This document shows positions 1 through 9,896 of a DNA stretch of 32,000 bases, one piece after another. The notes under the pieces were generated by a model, which did no database searches, was not told the DNA's origin, and saw only the letters and a program-made list of their open reading frames with translations. A program made the translations under genes and the position numbers. Numbering within the stretch: position 1 is the first letter of the stretch; each line of letters begins with the position of its first letter. This stretch comes from an uncultured Akkermansia sp. (GTDB lineage Bacteria; Verrucomicrobiota; Verrucomicrobiia; Limisphaerales; UBA9464), in contig CAYSGH010000018.1 of NCBI GenBank assembly GCA_964430505.1, positions 8,365-40,364 on the forward strand. The letters are read 5' to 3'.

Positions 1-1019
1 AGCATCTCGAGCGCATCGAGCAGGTGCTGCGCGCCGCCCGCATCCAGCCCGTCTCCATCGCCCCCGCCTTGACGGAGCTTCCCGACCTCGTTCCCGGCGG
101 GGAGGCCGTCCGGATGGACTTCCTCGCCTCGTCCACGTCGGTGTCGCTCGCGATCGCCTCGGGGGACGGCCTCGTCCTGCATCGATCGCTCGACGACGTC
201 GTGGTGGTGTCCGACGGCAAGCCGTCGGTGGCGGTGGATCGCCTGCAACGCGAGCTGCGCGTGACGATGGGCCAGCTTCCGGACGCCGTGCGCCAGGCGC
301 TGGCCCGCACCCGCGTCTTCGGGCACGGGCCGTTGGCGGACTCGCTGCACCGGGCGTTGGCCTCGCTTGCGCCGCGCCTTGCCCTTTCCGTCGCCCGGGC
401 CGACCGCGTGCCGGAGCAGCGGCAGGCGTTGCCGCGCATCACGCCGGGCCTGCCCGCCGGCGCCGCCTTGGCGATGGCCGCGCGGCATGTCGGGGGGCGG
501 CCCGCCTCCTTCGAGTTCCTCGCCCCGCGCGTTTCCCCGTGGCAGCAGTTGGCCGCGCGCTTTTCGTCCGGTCGCGCCGCCCATTATGGCATCGCCGCCG
601 CGGCCGTGGTGCTGTTGGTGGCCGGGGCCTTCCTCGTGCAACAGGCGCGGCTCATGTCCCTCCGTTCCCGCTGGAACGGGATGGCCAAGACCGTCGCGCA
701 CGTCGAGGAGCTCCAGGCCAACCTCAAGAAGTACCGGCCGTGGTTTGACGACTCGGTGCCGTCCCTGCTGGTCCTGCGGACGTTGACCATGGCGTTCCCC
801 GAGGACGGCAGCTTGACCGCCAAGACGGTCGAGCTGCGCGAGGGGGCCACCGTGGTGTGCTCCGGCACCGCCAACGACTCCTTCACCCTGAACCGTACCC
901 TGGAGAAGCTCCGGACGGTTCCGGCGGTGCGCGACGTCACCGTGGACCAGATGCGCGGCAAGTCCCCCGTGCAGTTCTCCTTCAACTTCAAGTGGGACGC
1001 CTCCGCTGGAACGCCATGA
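1..1019 (+). CDS. GspL-like / PilM-PilN fusion-type inner-membrane assembly protein, 5' end cut by the window edge
   Basis: The frame is open from base 3 (HLERIEQVL...), so the GTG at 24 is probably internal. Contains the C-terminal half of an actin-like PilM/GspL cytoplasmic domain, one TM helix (YGIAAAAVVLLVAGAFLV), then a ~100 aa periplasmic PilN/GspL-type domain. The TGA stop at 1017-1019 overlaps the next ATG (ATGA). Confidence 0.6.
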   Translation, partial: HLERIEQVLRAARIQPVSIAPALTELPDLVPGGEAVRMDFLASSTSVSLAIASGDGLVLHRSLDDVVVVSDGKPSVAVDRLQRELRVTMGQLPDAVRQALARTRVFGHGPLADSLHRALASLAPRLALSVARADRVPEQRQALPRITPGLPAGAALAMAARHVGGRPASFEFLAPRVSPWQQLAARFSSGRAAHYGIAAAAVVLLVAGAFLVQQARLMSLRSRWNGMAKTVAHVEELQANLKKYRPWFDDSVPSLLVLRTLTMAFPEDGSLTAKTVELREGATVVCSGTANDSFTLNRTLEKLRTVPAVRDVTVDQMRGKSPVQFSFNFKWDASAGTP

Positions 1020-1558
1020 ACCTCGATCCCGAGCAACGCAAGAAGCTGCTCCTCGTCGTCGCGCTTGCCGGCGTCGGGTTGCTCCTGGGCGACCGCGTCG
1101 TCCTGGGCCCCCTGCTCAAGTCGTGGAACGCGCGCCAGGCCCAGATCGCCGAGCTGCAGAAGCGCATCGCCAAGGGCGAGCAACTCGTCTCGCGTCTCCG
1201 GCCCGTCGAGGGCCGTTGGTCTGAGATGGCCTCCAACGCCCTCCCCAAGGTGACGTCCGCCGCCGAGGGCCGCGTCCTGGACGCCCTCGACCGGTGGTCC
1301 AAGGCCGCCGCCGTCAACGTCACCTCCGTCAAGCCCCAGTGGAAGCAGCTCGACGAGGATTACTCCACCTTCGAGTGCCACGTGGATGCCACCGGCAACC
1401 TCGCCACCCTCACCCGCTTCCTGTACGAGGTCGAACGCGACAAGCTCGCCGTGCGCGTCGAGGCCATCGAGATCGCCGCCCGTGACAAGGAGGCCGCTCA
1501 GCTTTCCCTGGGCCTGCATGTCAGCGGCCTCGTTCTCAACCTACCCGAACGCCGATGA
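1016..1558 (+). CDS. PilO/GspM-like bitopic assembly protein
   Basis: ATG at 1016 inside ORF 857..1558. Short N-terminus, TM helix (KLLLVVALAGVGLLLG), a coiled-coil segment (ARQAQIAELQKRIAKGEQL), then a small alpha/beta domain. Its position after the PilN-like gene fits the family. ATGA overlaps at both ends. Confidence 0.55.
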   Translation: MNLDPEQRKKLLLVVALAGVGLLLGDRVVLGPLLKSWNARQAQIAELQKRIAKGEQLVSRLRPVEGRWSEMASNALPKVTSAAEGRVLDALDRWSKAAAVNVTSVKPQWKQLDEDYSTFECHVDATGNLATLTRFLYEVERDKLAVRVEAIEIAARDKEAAQLSLGLHVSGLVLNLPERR

Positions 1559-2529
1559 CGCCCCTCCTGCCATCCCCCGCCGGCGCTTGGATCGCCGCCG
1601 CGCTCGCCCTGGCCGTGACCGTGTCCGCCCTCGGTCAGGAGGCGGCTCCCGCTGCTGCCGCGCCGGAGGCGGTTGCCGCCGCCGCTGCTGCTGCCGCCGC
1701 TGCCGCTGTGGCCGCTGCCCAGGACGCCGAGGAAGGTTCCGAGGAGGACGGCCCCGCCGAGGATGAGCCCGCCGCAGCCTCCACCAACGGCGCCCCGACG
1801 CTGTCCGTGACCGGCTCCACCAACGCCCCCACCCACTCCGTCTCCGGGACCAATGCCCCGGCACGCCGCACCTCGCGCCGCTCGTCCCGAAGGCCCGAGC
1901 GCTCCGGCATCTCCGACTGGCGCCCGTCCAGCCGGTCCTCGTCCACGTCCAGCAAGGCCGCCGCCACGAATGGCCCCGCCTCGTCCGACTACGCCTACTT
2001 CCAGCTCGTCAACGATCGGAACATCTTCAACCCCGCCCGCGTCCCCAACCGCCCCGACCGTCCCAAGTCCCCCGAGACGCGGCGCACGCCCATGGTCGAG
2101 TCCCTCTCCCTTGTGGGGACGCTGCGTTACGAGAAGGGCATCTTTGCCTTCTTCGACGGCACCCGCTCCGAGTTCCGCAAGGCCCTCAAGGAAGGGGACA
2201 CGGTGGGCGGGCATCGCATCCTGTCGGTCACGGATTCCACCGTCCGTCTCGTCGTCCAGGATCGTGCGGTGGACCTGAAGGTCGGCAACCAACTCCGCCG
2301 CGAGGACGAGGGCGAGTGGACCCTCGCCTCGGGCGTGACCTTGGGTGCGTCGTCGTCCTCCGGCGGCTCGGGTTCCTCGAATTCGCCGTCCTCGTCGAGC
2401 AACACCGCGTCCGCCTCCTCCCAGTCTTCCAATGCCTCGTCGTCGTCATCCTCCGGGTCCTCCGGGGGCGGCGCCGAGGAGATCCTCCGGCGCCTTCGGG
2501 AACGTCGCGCCCAGGAGACCAAGCAATGA
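1555..2529 (+). CDS. PilP/GspC-like secreted protein with long low-complexity regions
   Basis: Signal peptide (AWIAAALALAVTVSALGQ). Has an Ala run, an acidic patch, an Arg/Ser-rich segment and a DRNIFNP motif. A beta-rich core (LVGTLRYEKGIFAFFDG...LKEGDTVGGHRILSVTDSTVRLV) resembles PilP / the GspC HR domain. Ser/Gly-rich tail. Lies directly upstream of the secretin. Confidence 0.5.
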   Translation: MTPLLPSPAGAWIAAALALAVTVSALGQEAAPAAAAPEAVAAAAAAAAAAAVAAAQDAEEGSEEDGPAEDEPAAASTNGAPTLSVTGSTNAPTHSVSGTNAPARRTSRRSSRRPERSGISDWRPSSRSSSTSSKAAATNGPASSDYAYFQLVNDRNIFNPARVPNRPDRPKSPETRRTPMVESLSLVGTLRYEKGIFAFFDGTRSEFRKALKEGDTVGGHRILSVTDSTVRLVVQDRAVDLKVGNQLRREDEGEWTLASGVTLGASSSSGGSGSSNSPSSSSNTASASSQSSNASSSSSSGSSGGGAEEILRRLRERRAQETKQ

Positions 2530-4235
2530 ACACGCACACTCCACGCATCGTCGTCCTCGCCCTCGTCGCCACCGTCTCGCTGGGCCTTCGGGTCCAGGCG
2601 CAGGAGGCCAAGCCCGCGACCCCGACGGCCCCGGCACCCGCCGCTGCTGCGGACGCTCCGAAGGCGGCGGATGCAAGCTCTGCGGCCGCTGCGCCGGACG
2701 CCAAGGCGGCAGGAACGACCTCCACCAACGCGCCGGCCGCCGCGCCCAAGCAGCCGCCGGAGCCGCTGCCTGCGCCGGAGCCGTTGCCGACCGCCCCGGA
2801 TGGCAGCCCCATGGTCCGCATGAACTTCCGCGGCGTCCCGTTGGAGACCGTCCTGAGCTACCTCTCCGAGGCGGCCGGCTACATCATCGTCCTGGACACC
2901 GAGGTGAAGGGGCGCATCGACGCGTGGTCCGCGCAGCCGGTGACCCGCGAGGAGGCCTTCCAAATCCTCGAGGCCGCCCTCGCCAAGAACGGCTACACCG
3001 CCCTCCGAAACGGCCGCACCCTCACCATCGTCTCCAAGGAGTCCGCCAAGAAGCGCGACATCCCGGTCAAGTCCGGCAACAACCCGGATTCCATCCCGAA
3101 GGACGACCAAGTGGTCACCCAGATCATCCCCATCCGCTTCATCAGCGCCACCGCCCTGACCACGGACCTGTCGCCGTTGCTGCCCTCCGAGGCGACCATG
3201 ACGGCCAACGAGGCTGGCAATGCGTTGGTCATCACGGACACGCAGGCCTCCATCAAGCGGCTCACCGAGGTCATCCGGGCGCTCGACACCTCCTTGGCCA
3301 ATTCCTCCTCCGTCAAGGTGTTCCCCCTTCGCTACGCGGATGCCAAGGAGCTGGCCACCGTCATCAAGGACCTTTTCTCGACCACGGACTCCCGGGGCGG
3401 CAACACGGGCAACAACGGCCGCGGGGGCTTCCAGGGGTTCCCCGGTGGATTCGGCGGCATGGGCGGCTTTGGTGGCCGTGGGGGAGGCGGAGGCGGCGGC
3501 GGCGGATCCTCGTCCGGTGCGGGCAACCGAGCCGCCGCATCCAAGGTTGTGGCCGTCGCCGACGAGCACTCCAACTCCGTCATCGTGAACGCCCCCGAGG
3601 ACGCGATGCCCACCATTGAGGAGTTGATCCGATCCGTGGACACCAACGTTCAGGACGTCACCGAGATCCGCGTCTTCCGGCTTCAGTTTTCCGACCCGAC
3701 CGAGATGGCCGGGATTCTTTCGGGGTTGTTCCCGGATGAGGCCACCGCCCGCAATGGGAGCAACAACAACCGCGGCCAGCGCTTCGGAGGCTTCGGGATG
3801 TTTGGCGGCATGAACCGGGGCGGGGGGGGCGGCGGCGGCTCGGGCAGCTCCAGCGACCGGGCGCTCAAGAAGGGCAAGGTCACGGCCGTCCCGGATCCCC
3901 GCACCTCCTCCGTCATCGTGTCCGCCGACCGCGAAATCATGGGCCAGATTGCCGAGATGGTGAAGCAGCTCGACGCCAACCCGGCACGGAAGCAGAAGGT
4001 GTACGTGTACGACCTCGACAACGCCGACCCGCAGCAGGTGCAGGACGTGCTCCGCGGCCTCTTCGAGCGCCAGGGCAGCAACACCCGCAACACCCAGACC
4101 CGCCAGCAAAACTCGGCCCTGACCACCCGGTCCACCCAGCAGCAGCAGCAGAACAACCTCAACCGCGGCGGGGCCGGCTTCGGCTCCGGCGCGGGCGGCG
4201 GCGGCGGGCTCGGCGCCGGTGGACGTGGCAACTAG
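2526..4235 (+). CDS. Secretin N-terminal-domain protein (N0 plus repeated secretin_N domains, no pore domain)
   Basis: ATG at 2526 (ATGA overlap) and signal peptide MNTHTPRIVVLALVATVSLGLRVQAQ. N0-like segment MVRMNFRGVPLETVLSYLSEAAGYIIVLD. Repeated motifs of the type VKVFPLRYADAKELATVIKDLF...VAVADEHSNSVIVNAPEDAMPTIEELIRSVD. Ends in a Gln/Gly-rich tail at TAG 4233-4235 without any secretin C-domain. Confidence 0.8.
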   Translation: MNTHTPRIVVLALVATVSLGLRVQAQEAKPATPTAPAPAAAADAPKAADASSAAAAPDAKAAGTTSTNAPAAAPKQPPEPLPAPEPLPTAPDGSPMVRMNFRGVPLETVLSYLSEAAGYIIVLDTEVKGRIDAWSAQPVTREEAFQILEAALAKNGYTALRNGRTLTIVSKESAKKRDIPVKSGNNPDSIPKDDQVVTQIIPIRFISATALTTDLSPLLPSEATMTANEAGNALVITDTQASIKRLTEVIRALDTSLANSSSVKVFPLRYADAKELATVIKDLFSTTDSRGGNTGNNGRGGFQGFPGGFGGMGGFGGRGGGGGGGGGSSSGAGNRAAASKVVAVADEHSNSVIVNAPEDAMPTIEELIRSVDTNVQDVTEIRVFRLQFSDPTEMAGILSGLFPDEATARNGSNNNRGQRFGGFGMFGGMNRGGGGGGGSGSSSDRALKKGKVTAVPDPRTSSVIVSADREIMGQIAEMVKQLDANPARKQKVYVYDLDNADPQQVQDVLRGLFERQGSNTRNTQTRQQNSALTTRSTQQQQQNNLNRGGAGFGSGAGGGGGLGAGGRGN

Positions 4236-4301
4236 GACGGACCACCCCAGATGATCCCGCGCCCGGCATCCCCCCATTCCCGCACCCTGATGTTTCCCCC
4301 C

Positions 4302-5597
4302 ATGAATCGCCTTGCACAACGCGCCTCCGCGATCCTTCTCGCCGCATCCATGGCCGCGCCCGCCCTCGCCCAGTTCCAGGGCTTTGGCGGCGGGGGCGGC
4401 GGCACCCAACGCCGGGCCGGCACGGGCTCCGGCGCCACCCGGGAGTACCCCAACAACACCGAGGTCGGCGACGCCATCATCTCCTTCGACCCCGAGACCC
4501 GTAAGATCATCGTCATCACGGACGAGGACACGAACCTCCAGATCAAGGACGTGATCACGAGCCTCGACAACCCGCGCCCGCAGGTGCTCATCAAGGTGGT
4601 CTTCCTGGAGGTCACCCACAACGACTCGTCCGACATCGGCGTGGAGGGCGGCTACACGCGGCAGCTCGGCAACACCGGCACCGGCAGCATTGCCAACGCC
4701 TTCGGGGCCTCCGCCCTGTCCTCCGCCGCCACGTCCTCCGTCCCCAACGTCCTGGGCCAAAACGTCCAGAACATGCTGCCCGTGCCGCCCGGAGCGGGCG
4801 TGTACCAGGTCCTGGGCTCCGACTTCCAGGCCACCCTTCGCGCCATTGCCCAGGCCGGCCGCGCCGAGATCCTCTCCAGGCCCTCCATCCTCGCCCGCAA
4901 CAACCAGCCCGCCACCATCTCCCTCGGCCAGCAGGTCCCCCTCGTCTCCAACACGCGCTTCGACGCCATCAACGGCCAGATCAACACCGTCTCCTACCAG
5001 AACGTCGGCATCATCCTCCGCGTCACCCCCTTCATCACCCCCGACGGCATGGTGGAGATGATCGTGTCCCCGGAGACGTCGTCGCTGGCCGAGCGAACGC
5101 AGTGGGTGCCCATCTCGCGCGACGCCCTCGCACCGGTCGTCAACTCCCGCCTCGCCGACACCGTCGTCGTGGTGCCCGACGGCCAGACCGTCGTCATCGG
5201 CGGCCTGATGCAGAACCAGATCACCGAGTCCGAAAGCAAGGTTCCCTACCTCGGCGACATCCCGTGGCTGGGGAACGCCTTCAAGCGGAAGCAGAAGTCC
5301 AACATCAAGACCGAGCTCATGATCTTCCTCACCCCCATCGTCATCCCCGCGCCGTCCCAGCTCGCGGGCATGACCGCCGAGGAACGATCCAAGGTCCTCC
5401 TCCGGCCCAAGTCCCTGCCGCAAATGCAGCTCGAGAACCTGGTGGACCAGCTCCCCGACAAGTCCTCTGACAAGTCCTCCGACAAGAAGCCCGCCAAGAA
5501 GGCGTCGGCGGTTCCCGATGCACCCCAAGCCCCCAAGGCTCCCGTGGTCCCGGCGGACCCCAAGCTGAAGGCCGCTCCGGCACCCGCCCGTCGGTAG
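4302..5597 (+). CDS. Secretin pore-domain protein (GspD/PilQ C-domain) with its own signal peptide
   Basis: Signal peptide MNRLAQRASAILLAASMAAPALAQ; an alternative ATG lies at 4251. Classic secretin C-domain motifs are present: RPQVLIKVVFLEV, LRAIAQAGRAEILSRPSILARNNQPATISLGQQVP, VPDGQTVVIGGLM, VPYLGDIPWLGNAFK, ELMIFLTPIVI. Lys/Pro-rich tail. Confidence 0.85.
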   Translation: MNRLAQRASAILLAASMAAPALAQFQGFGGGGGGTQRRAGTGSGATREYPNNTEVGDAIISFDPETRKIIVITDEDTNLQIKDVITSLDNPRPQVLIKVVFLEVTHNDSSDIGVEGGYTRQLGNTGTGSIANAFGASALSSAATSSVPNVLGQNVQNMLPVPPGAGVYQVLGSDFQATLRAIAQAGRAEILSRPSILARNNQPATISLGQQVPLVSNTRFDAINGQINTVSYQNVGIILRVTPFITPDGMVEMIVSPETSSLAERTQWVPISRDALAPVVNSRLADTVVVVPDGQTVVIGGLMQNQITESESKVPYLGDIPWLGNAFKRKQKSNIKTELMIFLTPIVIPAPSQLAGMTAEERSKVLLRPKSLPQMQLENLVDQLPDKSSDKSSDKKPAKKASAVPDAPQAPKAPVVPADPKLKAAPAPARR

Positions 5598-8309: not shown

Positions 8310-9896
8310 TCACTCCGACACGTTGCGATCATCCAGGAAGATCCACTTGTGCACCTCGATCCCATGCGCGTTCAAGGCCTCCGCATACTCCTTCTTCCGC
8401 ACCAGGCTGGAAGGGGAGTTCATCACCATCTGGATCTTGCCCGTCGGGTAATGGTGCCGCACCAACCGCATGATCGAGTCGTAGTCGCGGCTGTCGTAGC
8501 CCACGCCGAGCCTCCGATACGACTCGTCGCTCGAAAACGACATGCCTTGCTCCGTCAGCATCCGGTCCGTGGCATGTGCCCCGAACCCCGCCCCGCGGCC
8601 GTCGAAGTACAGGAGGAAGACCGCGCCCACGCCGTAGTGGACGATGTGTTGAACCGACTTCTTGAACTTCACCCGGTTGTCCATGCTGACGAGGGGAAGG
8701 CGATTGAACAGGGACTCGCTTTGCACGCGGATGACGGCGACGTCGTACAGCAGCGGCTTCCCGTACGTCAGCACCACCATCTCCTGGCTGGTCACGATGT
8801 CGAAGTACACGTGGACCCGAAACCAGTAGGGCGTCGTCAGCAGCTCCGTCACGGGCGATCCCGGGCGCGTTTCCTTGTGGCGCGCGAGGTTGCCCGGGTC
8901 GATCCGCACCAGGAGCCGGTTGCCCCGGATCACGTAGTAGTCCCGCACCAGGGGCGACTCCCCTTCCATGAACCGCTCCACGGGCGTCTCCCGGAACACC
9001 TCGTGGAAGCGCTCCTCGGACAGCACGATCTCGCCGTCCACGGGCTTGACCGGCAGGAAGTAGGAGGCCGCGTAGATAAACCGTTGCGCTCCCGGCACCG
9101 CATGCGGCCGGAATGGCATCACCGGCTCCGGCGGCAGCGCCCGCCTCACGCCGTCCGTCGCCTGCTTCAACTGATGCCCCGAGTCCGCCTTCGACGCCAG
9201 GTACGCCACGTTGAACGGCGATGGCTCGAACTCCAGCGCCTCCGTCCCGGCCACGGACAACCCCTGCGTCGTCAACGCGGACACCTTGTCGGGGTTGTTC
9301 GTCAGCAGCACGAACGGGGCCTTCACTCCCAGCAGGTGGCACACGTCCGCGACGTCGTCGTAGCTCCGATGATCCTTCCTCAGCCCCATGCAGCGGTACG
9401 CCTCGAACGTCGAGATCTGGTCGTGCGACGACTGCACCAGCATCCGGTCCCGAGCCTTCGCCACGTAGCCCACGCCGCGCCCCTCCTGCATCAGGTAAAA
9501 CAAGATCCCGCTCCCCTTGCGCTGGATCACCTCCAACGCCCCCTCCAACTGTTGCACGCAGTCGCAGTCGCATCCGCGCAGCGTCTCGCTGGTGATGCAC
9601 GAGCTGTGGATCCGCGCATACAGCACCGCCGCGCCCGTGACTTCGCCCGCCGCCAGCGCGATCACGTACCCCTTGTGGATCACGTCCTGGAACACATGCG
9701 CCGTGAAGTGGCCCATCCGCGTCTCGACCCCGCAGCTCGCGAGGAACAAGGTCGTGCCGCGCAACGGCCGGTCCTCCACCCCGGCGCGATTCAGGACGGA
9801 TCCTGCCGGGTGCTGCAATTGCTCCACCAACTGCCGCAAGACGTCCGGCAACCGCACCACCGGGTGGCCTTCATCCCTTGGCTTCGCCGCATTCAT
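8310..9896 (-). CDS. Tandem-domain GTP cyclohydrolase II-like protein (intact N-terminal domain plus Cys-less C-terminal copy)
   Basis: Domain 1 has the zinc-site pattern IHSSCITSETLRGCDCDC, plus FYLMQEGRGVGYVAK and LLTNNPDKV, matching RibA. Domain 2 (VQSESLFNRLP...LLYFDGRGAGFG...MVMNSPSSLVRK) is a diverged repeat without the Cys triad. The start is uncertain (9896, 9920 or 10052); the 774 aa ORF reaching 10634 runs into the divergent receptor gene. Confidence 0.75.
   Translation of the reverse strand: MNAAKPRDEGHPVVRLPDVLRQLVEQLQHPAGSVLNRAGVEDRPLRGTTLFLASCGVETRMGHFTAHVFQDVIHKGYVIALAAGEVTGAAVLYARIHSSCITSETLRGCDCDCVQQLEGALEVIQRKGSGILFYLMQEGRGVGYVAKARDRMLVQSSHDQISTFEAYRCMGLRKDHRSYDDVADVCHLLGVKAPFVLLTNNPDKVSALTTQGLSVAGTEALEFEPSPFNVAYLASKADSGHQLKQATDGVRRALPPEPVMPFRPHAVPGAQRFIYAASYFLPVKPVDGEIVLSEERFHEVFRETPVERFMEGESPLVRDYYVIRGNRLLVRIDPGNLARHKETRPGSPVTELLTTPYWFRVHVYFDIVTSQEMVVLTYGKPLLYDVAVIRVQSESLFNRLPLVSMDNRVKFKKSVQHIVHYGVGAVFLLYFDGRGAGFGAHATDRMLTEQGMSFSSDESYRRLGVGYDSRDYDSIMRLVRHHYPTGKIQMVMNSPSSLVRKKEYAEALNAHGIEVHKWIFLDDRNVSE

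Follow-up and report, generated by a model that had tools for sequence, protein, structure and literature searches.

Secretins are treated as single chains whose pore assembly requires the N-domain closest to the pore (N3 in GspD), and to our knowledge the single chain is the rule across bacteria. Here, we describe a secretin that is encoded by two adjacent genes, referred to as A and B, in an uncultured Akkermansia sp. of the Limisphaerales. These genes lie in a stretch of 32,000 nucleotides (positions 8,365 to 40,364 of contig CAYSGH010000018.1, assembly GCA_964430505.1), which was analysed as a whole and is called the window below; all coordinates are counted from its first letter. By sequence, fold and operon, the encoded protein is a type II secretion GspD, which lacks one defining feature, the single polypeptide. 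Neither an artefact nor a pseudogene of one strain, the split form is a variation, found throughout a clade, on a familiar machine component, and it is predicted to retain the function of an ordinary type II secretion channel.

The known precedents, namely the rhizobial RhcC1/RhcC2, the mitochondrial GspDN proteins and TadB/TadC, resemble A and B in part only. The split secretin of the rhizobial type III secretion system is likewise encoded by two genes, one for a protein with N0 and an N-domain (RhcC1 or NolW) and one for the pore protein RhcC2 (PMC3574062, PMC3973906, PMC3459982). RhcC2 is a secondarily acquired secretin of the Tad/CpaC type, a case of 'partial homologous gene replacement' according to Abby and Rocha (PMC3459982). 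A scan of plasmid pNGR234a from Sinorhizobium fredii NGR234 identified NolW as N0 plus one complete Secretin_N domain, and RhcC2 as T2SS-T3SS_pil_N, BON and Secretin domains (locus L033, 27670-29097, minus strand); the two genes are about 12 kb apart. This architecture is in keeping with the published conclusion that the split in rhizobia arose by replacement rather than by fission. The rhizobial system differs from the one described here in being a type III system in which no domain is cut, whereas A and B are adjacent (66 nt apart in the window) in a type II operon. Moreover, B has neither a pil_N nor a BON domain and continues the GspD profile directly. Also, a gene for a CpaD-family lipoprotein was seen beside rhcC2 (L033, 27094-27660, minus strand).

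The closest parallel to a cut inside a domain is provided by GspDN3 and GspDN2 of the mitochondrial system derived from type II secretion, which occurs in some protists and includes GspD, GspDL and GspDN1-3 (Horváthová et al., 2021; PMC8134430). One Secretin_N domain is represented there by two proteins, GspDN3 for its N-terminal half and GspDN2 for its C-terminal half, and a two-hybrid assay suggested an interaction between GspD and GspDN1 (PMC8134430). As with A and B, the secretin is present as several polypeptides with a cut inside an N-domain, a comparison drawn from the paper and not from sequences. That system is eukaryotic, nucleus-encoded, mitochondrion-targeted and highly diverged, with N0 lost and the pore truncated, whereas A and B belong to a bacterial operon, carry Sec-type signal peptides, and have N0 and a complete pore domain. 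The mitochondrial half-domains are free-standing, and the matching bacterial N-domain was not established (PMC8134430); by contrast, the halves in A and B can be aligned position by position with orthologues encoded by single genes. TadB and TadC, which form the inner-membrane platform of type IV filaments, are likewise an ancient and fixed fission into tandem genes in the same machine superfamily (Denise et al., 2019; PMC6668835). There, however, another protein is concerned, the cut lies between two repeated domains and no new signal peptide was needed. Literature searches for a split GspD in bacteria (Verrucomicrobia, Limisphaerales, Pedosphaera), whose coverage left out most subscription journals, revealed no report.

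Canonical GspD proteins (PulD, XcpQ, EpsD; TIGR02517; PDB 5WQ7, 5WLN, 6HCG) share with A and B an identical series of domains (N0, Secretin_N repeats, pore) and the same operon context, after GspJ, GspK, GspL-like and GspM-like genes. From the GspM-like gene at 857-1558, A and B can be recognised as the last genes of a type II secretion operon; T2SSJ and T2SSK are present upstream in the related loci L001 and L003. The best sequence and fold matches of A and B are type II GspD proteins. Namely, the top foldseek matches were PulD (6HCG; E-value 4e-33), ExeD, GspD and EpsD, all of them type II secretins, with TM-scores that are low because the query model is a flexible multi-domain monomer. On the GspD model TIGR02517, A covers positions 1-275 (231 bits) and B positions 293-599 (241.5 bits); together they cover the model, but neither reaches the equivalog cut-off of 351 bits alone. 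Unlike canonical GspD, the protein consists of two polypeptides, is cut in the pore-adjacent N-domain and carries a separate signal peptide on B. It also has four N-domains after N0 instead of three, with a Gly-rich loop insert of 40-90 amino acids in each of those following N1. These inserts are rich in Gly, Asn and Gln, occupy the α1-β2 position and occur in every N-domain after N1, in two-gene and single-gene forms alike.

When translated in one frame, positions 2526-5597 comprise 1024 codons, with TAG 4233-4235 as the sole internal stop before the terminal one. Gene A (2526-4235) codes for 569 amino acids, and gene B (4302-5597) for 431 amino acids starting from ATG 4302 (Table 1). A preliminary description, made from the DNA letters and their open reading frames, had reported this single in-frame TAG and had assigned a signal peptide, N0 and repeated Secretin_N domains to A and a signal peptide of its own plus the complete pore domain to B. 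The positions and features named there are right: the translation bears out the TAG, and the matches to PF21305 and PF03958 agree with the architecture proposed for A, in which the Pfam scan found no pore domain. For B, the match to PF00263 (residues 181-348, 169 bits) spans profile positions 1-168 of 169 and thus represents a complete pore domain, and the signal pattern is shared by 30 homologues.

The position of the cut was determined with the Secretin_N profile PF03958, which has 69 positions and a gathering cut-off of 28.2 bits, by scanning the pieces separately. The last 81 residues of A matched only profile positions 2-26 (β1-α1; 16.4 bits), while the first 73 residues of mature B matched only positions 26-69 (β2-β3-α2; 18 bits). 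The two half-domains joined through a shortened loop matched positions 2-69 with 35.7 bits (E-value 1e-8), which is above the cut-off. This locates the cut in the α1-β2 loop of the fourth N-domain, which is the direct neighbour of the pore. N2 and N3 of A carry Gly-rich inserts at this same loop position. Thus, the earlier proposals that the break falls within a Secretin_N domain, and at the Gly-rich loop position of the two preceding intact domains, were both correct. The half-domain of B aligns with the second half of N3 in XcpQ of P. aeruginosa (5WLN, residues 282-325), and the split domain occupies the place of N3 in GspD.

The half-domain of A is as well conserved as the intact domains, with column conservation of 0.72-0.82 across the family. 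Its core residues, the Tyr, Leu, Asn, Leu and Phe of the pattern VYVYxLxNA...VLxxLF (Y13, L15, N17, L27 and F31 in alignment A1), show little or no variation among relatives, whether two-gene or single-gene. Two further motifs occur in the two-gene family only and are absent from single-gene relatives: QNSALTTRST in A (residues 528-537, 4107-4136; conservation 0.76) and TREYPNNT(E/Q)VGDA in B (residues 46-58, 4437-4475), just before β2. They may be contact elements that arose with the fission.

Table 1. Features of the two-gene secretin locus and of the genes directly upstream, in window coordinates.
Feature	Position	Strand	Evidence or remark
GspM-like gene (T2SSM_b)	857..1558	+	Pfam PF10741, 23.7 bits (cut-off 21.7)
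Upstream gene, 324 aa, family unassigned	1555..2529	+	Stop overlaps ATG of A by 4 nt
Signal peptide of A, residues 1-25, MNTHTPRIVVLALVATVSLGLRVQA then QE; predicted cleavage VQA/QE	2526..2600	+	Charged start, hydrophobic core, AxA-type site
N0 of A, residues 99-164	2820..3017	+	PF21305, 51.1 bits; pLDDT >90 in AlphaFold2 model
Three complete Secretin_N domains of A: N1 196-256, N2 260-374, N3 378-485	3111..3980	+	PF03958, 41.9, 62.5 and 48.4 bits
Gly-rich loops of N2, N3 and split N4	3370-3560, 3720-3870, 4065-4469		
First half (β1-α1) of split fourth N-domain, A residues 489-513, KQKVYVYDLDNADPQQVQDVLRGLF	3990..4064	+	Secretin_N profile 2-26
Gln/Asn/Gly-rich C-terminal tail of A, residues 514-569, 5' part of former loop	4065..4232	+	Contains QNSALTTRST (4107-4136)
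TAG stop of A	4233..4235	+	Orthologous stops TAA, TGA or TAG
Spacer between A and B, 66 nt	4236..4301	+	By chance open in the A/B frame in this genome
Signal peptide of B, residues 1-23, predicted cleavage ALA/QF	4302..4370	+	Pattern shared in 30 homologues
Gly-rich N-terminal stretch of mature B, residues 24-56, 3' part of former loop	4371..4469	+	Holds most of TREYPNNT(E/Q)VGDA (4437-4475)
Second half (β2-β3-α2) of split N-domain, B residues 57-89, DAIISFDPETRKIIVITDEDTNLQIKDVITSLD	4470..4568	+	Secretin_N profile 26-69; XcpQ alignment; pLDDT 84-94
Secretin pore domain of B, about residues 93-372, Pfam core 181-348	4578..5417	+	PF00263, 169 bits; TIGR02517 293-599; fold matches
Lys/Pro/Ala-rich C-terminal tail of B and TAG stop	5418..5597	+	From sequence; without family match

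The layout was compared across 30 related loci, 27 of which came from a scan of species-representative genomes and three from contig look-ups. They are metagenome-assembled, represent Verrucomicrobiota mostly labelled Limisphaerales or Pedosphaera, and cover B identities from 92% to 44%; OZ260084.1, CP170459.1 and OY969763.1 are complete chromosomes. All 30 loci displayed an A-type reading frame, a stop, a short gap and an adjacent B-type reading frame. The gaps, measured to the start of the signal peptide, were mostly 17-65 nt, with one apparent 4-nt overlap (L029). A and B were in different frames in 20 loci and in the same frame in 10, three of which had two stops. TAA, TGA and TAG all occurred as the stop codon of A. 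Values of Ka/Ks, calculated for 10 locus pairs by the Nei-Gojobori method, were 0.02-0.22 for both A and B, showing purifying selection on each. The best 120 homologues of B (100% to 57% identity) were 312-462 amino acids long and possessed the pore domain but no complete N-domain array; one of them also scored for Secretin_N. Similarly, the best 120 homologues of A (448-594 amino acids) contained only N0 and Secretin_N domains. The two-gene form is old and common to the whole group of Verrucomicrobia comprising Limisphaerales/Pedosphaera and relatives, and it is not a broken gene.

These data bear directly on the alternatives named in the preliminary description, which had stressed that A and B share a reading frame. 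That statement is true for the window, but the emphasis on it was misplaced: since only 10 of 30 loci keep the frame, as expected from a chance of one in three, the shared frame is coincidental and has no significance. The window itself would fit a recent nonsense mutation, or an error of sequencing or assembly, at 4233-4235: one TAG separates A and B in the same frame and the 15 codons after it are open. Such an event would not explain a stop that recurs in all 30 loci, which come from independent assemblies and reach down to 44% identity, with varied stop codons and a shifted frame in 20, nor the low Ka/Ks on both sides of the stop, the conservation of the signal peptide in B and the lack of a single gene in any close relative. 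The probability of this explanation is negligible, and it was rejected: the stop is found in every relative, not in one strain, and selection is not relaxed. The suggested comparison of fused and split orthologous loci thus had a clear outcome, with the split being universal in the sample and not strain-specific.

Programmed readthrough of the TAG, or its reassignment, would yield one full-length secretin, and it is the same-frame arrangement with a single TAG in this genome that makes it conceivable. Across the family, however, the frame relation is kept at chance level only, the stop codon varies, and three of the same-frame loci would require passage through two stops. Readthrough would also bury a conserved hydrophobic signal peptide in a periplasmic loop, in the middle of the fused product, and reassignment of TAG is at odds with the fact that B itself ends in TAG. 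A scan of the window against Rfam yielded no recoding element or other RNA family above threshold. We consider this explanation very improbable. Both readthrough and codon reassignment were rejected for the family on the basis of the 20 out-of-frame loci, the use of three stop codons and the internal signal peptide. The earlier opinion that reassignment is unlikely holds, while readthrough falls away together with the nonsense mutation.

The locus was seen, at 47-80% identity to the window, in metagenome-assembled genomes that are labelled as Akkermansia muciniphila (L006, L016, L017), Cyanophyceae (L008), Kapaibacterium (L015) and Hydrogenedentota (L028). These odd labels most likely reflect mis-binning or mislabelling rather than horizontal transfer.

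Signal peptides of A and B were recognised by the sequence features of charge, hydrophobic core and AxA site. Homologues from L004 and L030 identified ATG 4302, and not ATG 4251, as the true start of B. The protein begins with MNRLAQRASAILLAASMAAPALA (MNRLAQRAS...), followed after the predicted cleavage by QFQG. All 30 homologues show the same pattern of a basic start, a hydrophobic core, an AxA-type site and then an invariant Gln. A and B thus have independent signal peptides and are, in all likelihood, exported separately. Gln is the first mature residue at both predicted cleavage sites (VQA/QE at 2598-2603 in A; ALA/QF at 4368-4373 in B), which could reflect an N-terminal pyroglutamate or a shared processing requirement.

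The origin of the two genes was examined through their single-gene relatives. In a library clustered at 50% identity, the top matches to B, about 33 in number, were all short forms. Single-gene secretins first appeared at no more than 47% identity to B (P0154, 895 aa; P0160, 814 aa; P0165, 845 aa; P0166, 826 aa), and the nearest of them share approximately 37-47% identity. The last N-domain of these relatives starts with a TFFLHRLKNGQAVKLQVVLNTLFG-like segment, continues with an unbroken Gly/Asn/Ser-rich loop of about 90-120 residues, and ends with VFVVADEDTNSLLVTT...ELDRPVPQVLIKV. Across the junction, their alignment to the C-terminus of A and mature B is colinear, and they are orthologous to the two genes. 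The tail of A (about 55 residues) and the N-terminal stretch of B (about 33 residues) together are similar in length to the single-gene loop.

The operon context is also shared. P0166 is preceded by genes for GspF, G, J and K, a 469 aa gene, an M_b-type gene and a 201 aa gene; the two-gene loci examined by look-up (L001, L003) contain GspJ, GspK, genes of about 480 aa, about 180 aa and 230-370 aa, and then A and B. The single-gene GspD P0166 therefore occupies the same operon slot as A and B. When the pore domains were placed in a neighbour-joining tree, 29 of the 31 short forms bearing a signal peptide formed one clade without any single-gene member; the two outliers were fragments. With single chains being the rule, one clade of two-gene forms and colinear single-gene relatives, one fission is the most parsimonious explanation. 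The two-gene layout is almost certainly a conserved fission, best read as one old event in a disordered loop that was already present, by which the downstream half acquired a start codon and a signal peptide. The gene fission with a new signal peptide on the downstream half, as first proposed from the window alone, is in line with the layout of all 30 loci, the selection on both genes and the colinear single-gene relatives in the same slot.

How the two products might work together can be outlined as follows. The ancestral single gene would already have had a long, disordered Gly/Asn/Gln-rich α1-β2 loop in its last periplasmic N-domain, within which the stop codon, short spacer, start codon and new Sec signal peptide would have arisen. 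A and B would each be exported through Sec. B, with a mature mass of about 43 kDa, would make the outer-membrane pore while bearing only β2-β3-α2 of the adjoining N-domain, and A would provide N0, N1-N3 and the missing β1-α1. In the periplasm, β1-α1 of A would pack on β2-β3-α2 of B to give one complete N-domain. This rebuilt domain would tie the vestibule to the pore non-covalently, one to one, with N0 as the contact to the inner-membrane platform. In canonical systems, N0 contacts GspC of that platform (PMC8134430).

We infer separate export, assembly in trans and function of A and B from their sequences. A and B are probably the products of an old fission of a GspD-type secretin in which β1-α1 of A completes the half-domain of B in the periplasm. 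For domain trans-complementation between the two as such, the balance tips slightly in favour, in view of the exact complementarity on the profile, the conservation of the half-domain in A and the retention of core residues as in single-gene relatives. The wider proposition, that two separately exported chains rebuild one ring-forming N-domain in trans and that pore and vestibule are made, targeted and perhaps coupled independently, is evenly balanced.

Structure prediction was performed twice. A first AlphaFold2 run, for which the C-terminal part of A was fused to mature B and no alignment was supplied, reached a pLDDT of 35. The second run treated A and B as one chain and used an alignment (A2) of unpaired A homologues, B homologues and single-gene relatives; here, the pLDDT was 73, with 84-94 for the half-domain of B, although A homologues were misregistered by one domain. 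In this model, α1 of A reached only about 74 and β1 was unformed (<50). Because MAFFT had shifted the A homologues in A2 by one N-domain, the β1-α1 columns were nearly empty and this part of A was almost without alignment support. With the alignment so thin there, the poorly built β1-α1 leaves rebuilding of the domain in trans neither supported nor refuted. A reservation on the family as a whole is that all related loci come from metagenome-assembled genomes or metagenomes.

The failure of AlphaFold2 to build β1 of A onto B, in a region where the alignment was nearly empty, would equally suit a different arrangement, in which both proteins are functional without sharing a domain. B would then be a minimal secretin, its hairpin and helix standing alone or pairing between B subunits, and A a separate periplasmic adaptor with other contacts, made via QNSALTTRST or through another protein of the operon. 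The presence of QNSALTTRST in A and TREYPNNTxVGDA in B near the new termini, and their absence from single-gene relatives, is compatible with such a different contact. Isolated half N-domains also exist as separate proteins in the mitochondrial system (PMC8134430). However, the β1-α1 of A keeps the single-gene core residues and is conserved like whole domains, which is hard to explain if it does not fold into an N-domain. The exact complementarity of the halves on the Pfam profile and the adjacency of A and B in 30 of 30 loci also speak against this arrangement, which we regard as rather unlikely.

A conserved cut in the pore-proximal N-domain, with a gained signal peptide, would surprise a secretin specialist. 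A whole bacterial clade cuts the chain inside this domain and has long kept both parts under selection, which suggests that the covalent link between pore and vestibule is dispensable. How a new signal peptide can emerge within a gene is a further question posed by the fission, as the split is viable only if the downstream half gains export simultaneously. A and B provide a natural system for studying how an N-domain ring nucleates assembly and how a pore unit of about 400 residues arrives in the outer membrane, as well as a tractable bacterial analogue of the fragmented mitochondrial GspD. If the domain is indeed rebuilt in trans, this would be a natural split-domain complementation in a secretion machine, and a bacterial counterpart that makes sense of GspDN2 and GspDN3. 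In practical terms, annotation pipelines call A a 'secretin N-terminal domain-containing protein' and B often a 'hypothetical protein', so that system finders expecting one GspD may mis-score such type II systems.

The 324 aa protein encoded at 1555-2529, directly 5' of the secretin, is rich in Ser, Ala and Pro and had no match in Pfam. Since the slot just before the secretin always holds a gene of 201-370 aa in relatives (L001, L003, L034), this product may be a candidate GspC/PilP-like partner of N0. At the other end of the locus, the tail of B (5418-5594, residues 373-431) contains repeated SDKSSDK; an S-domain was not recognised in this tail and no pilotin gene was evident near B. The operon ends 3' of B, and the genes that follow on either strand have no connection with secretion; they code for an LD-carboxypeptidase, a phosphoribosyltransferase, GTP cyclohydrolase II, a TonB-dependent receptor, a purine nucleoside permease, adenosine deaminase and a xanthine/uracil permease. 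Finally, we observed predicted giant proteins of 3,400-5,500 aa with a C-terminal secretin pore domain that is approximately 32-42% identical to B (P0222, P0226, P0229, P0237, P0246, P0249, P0258, P0261, P0264 and P0265); their size far exceeds that of any secretin known to us.

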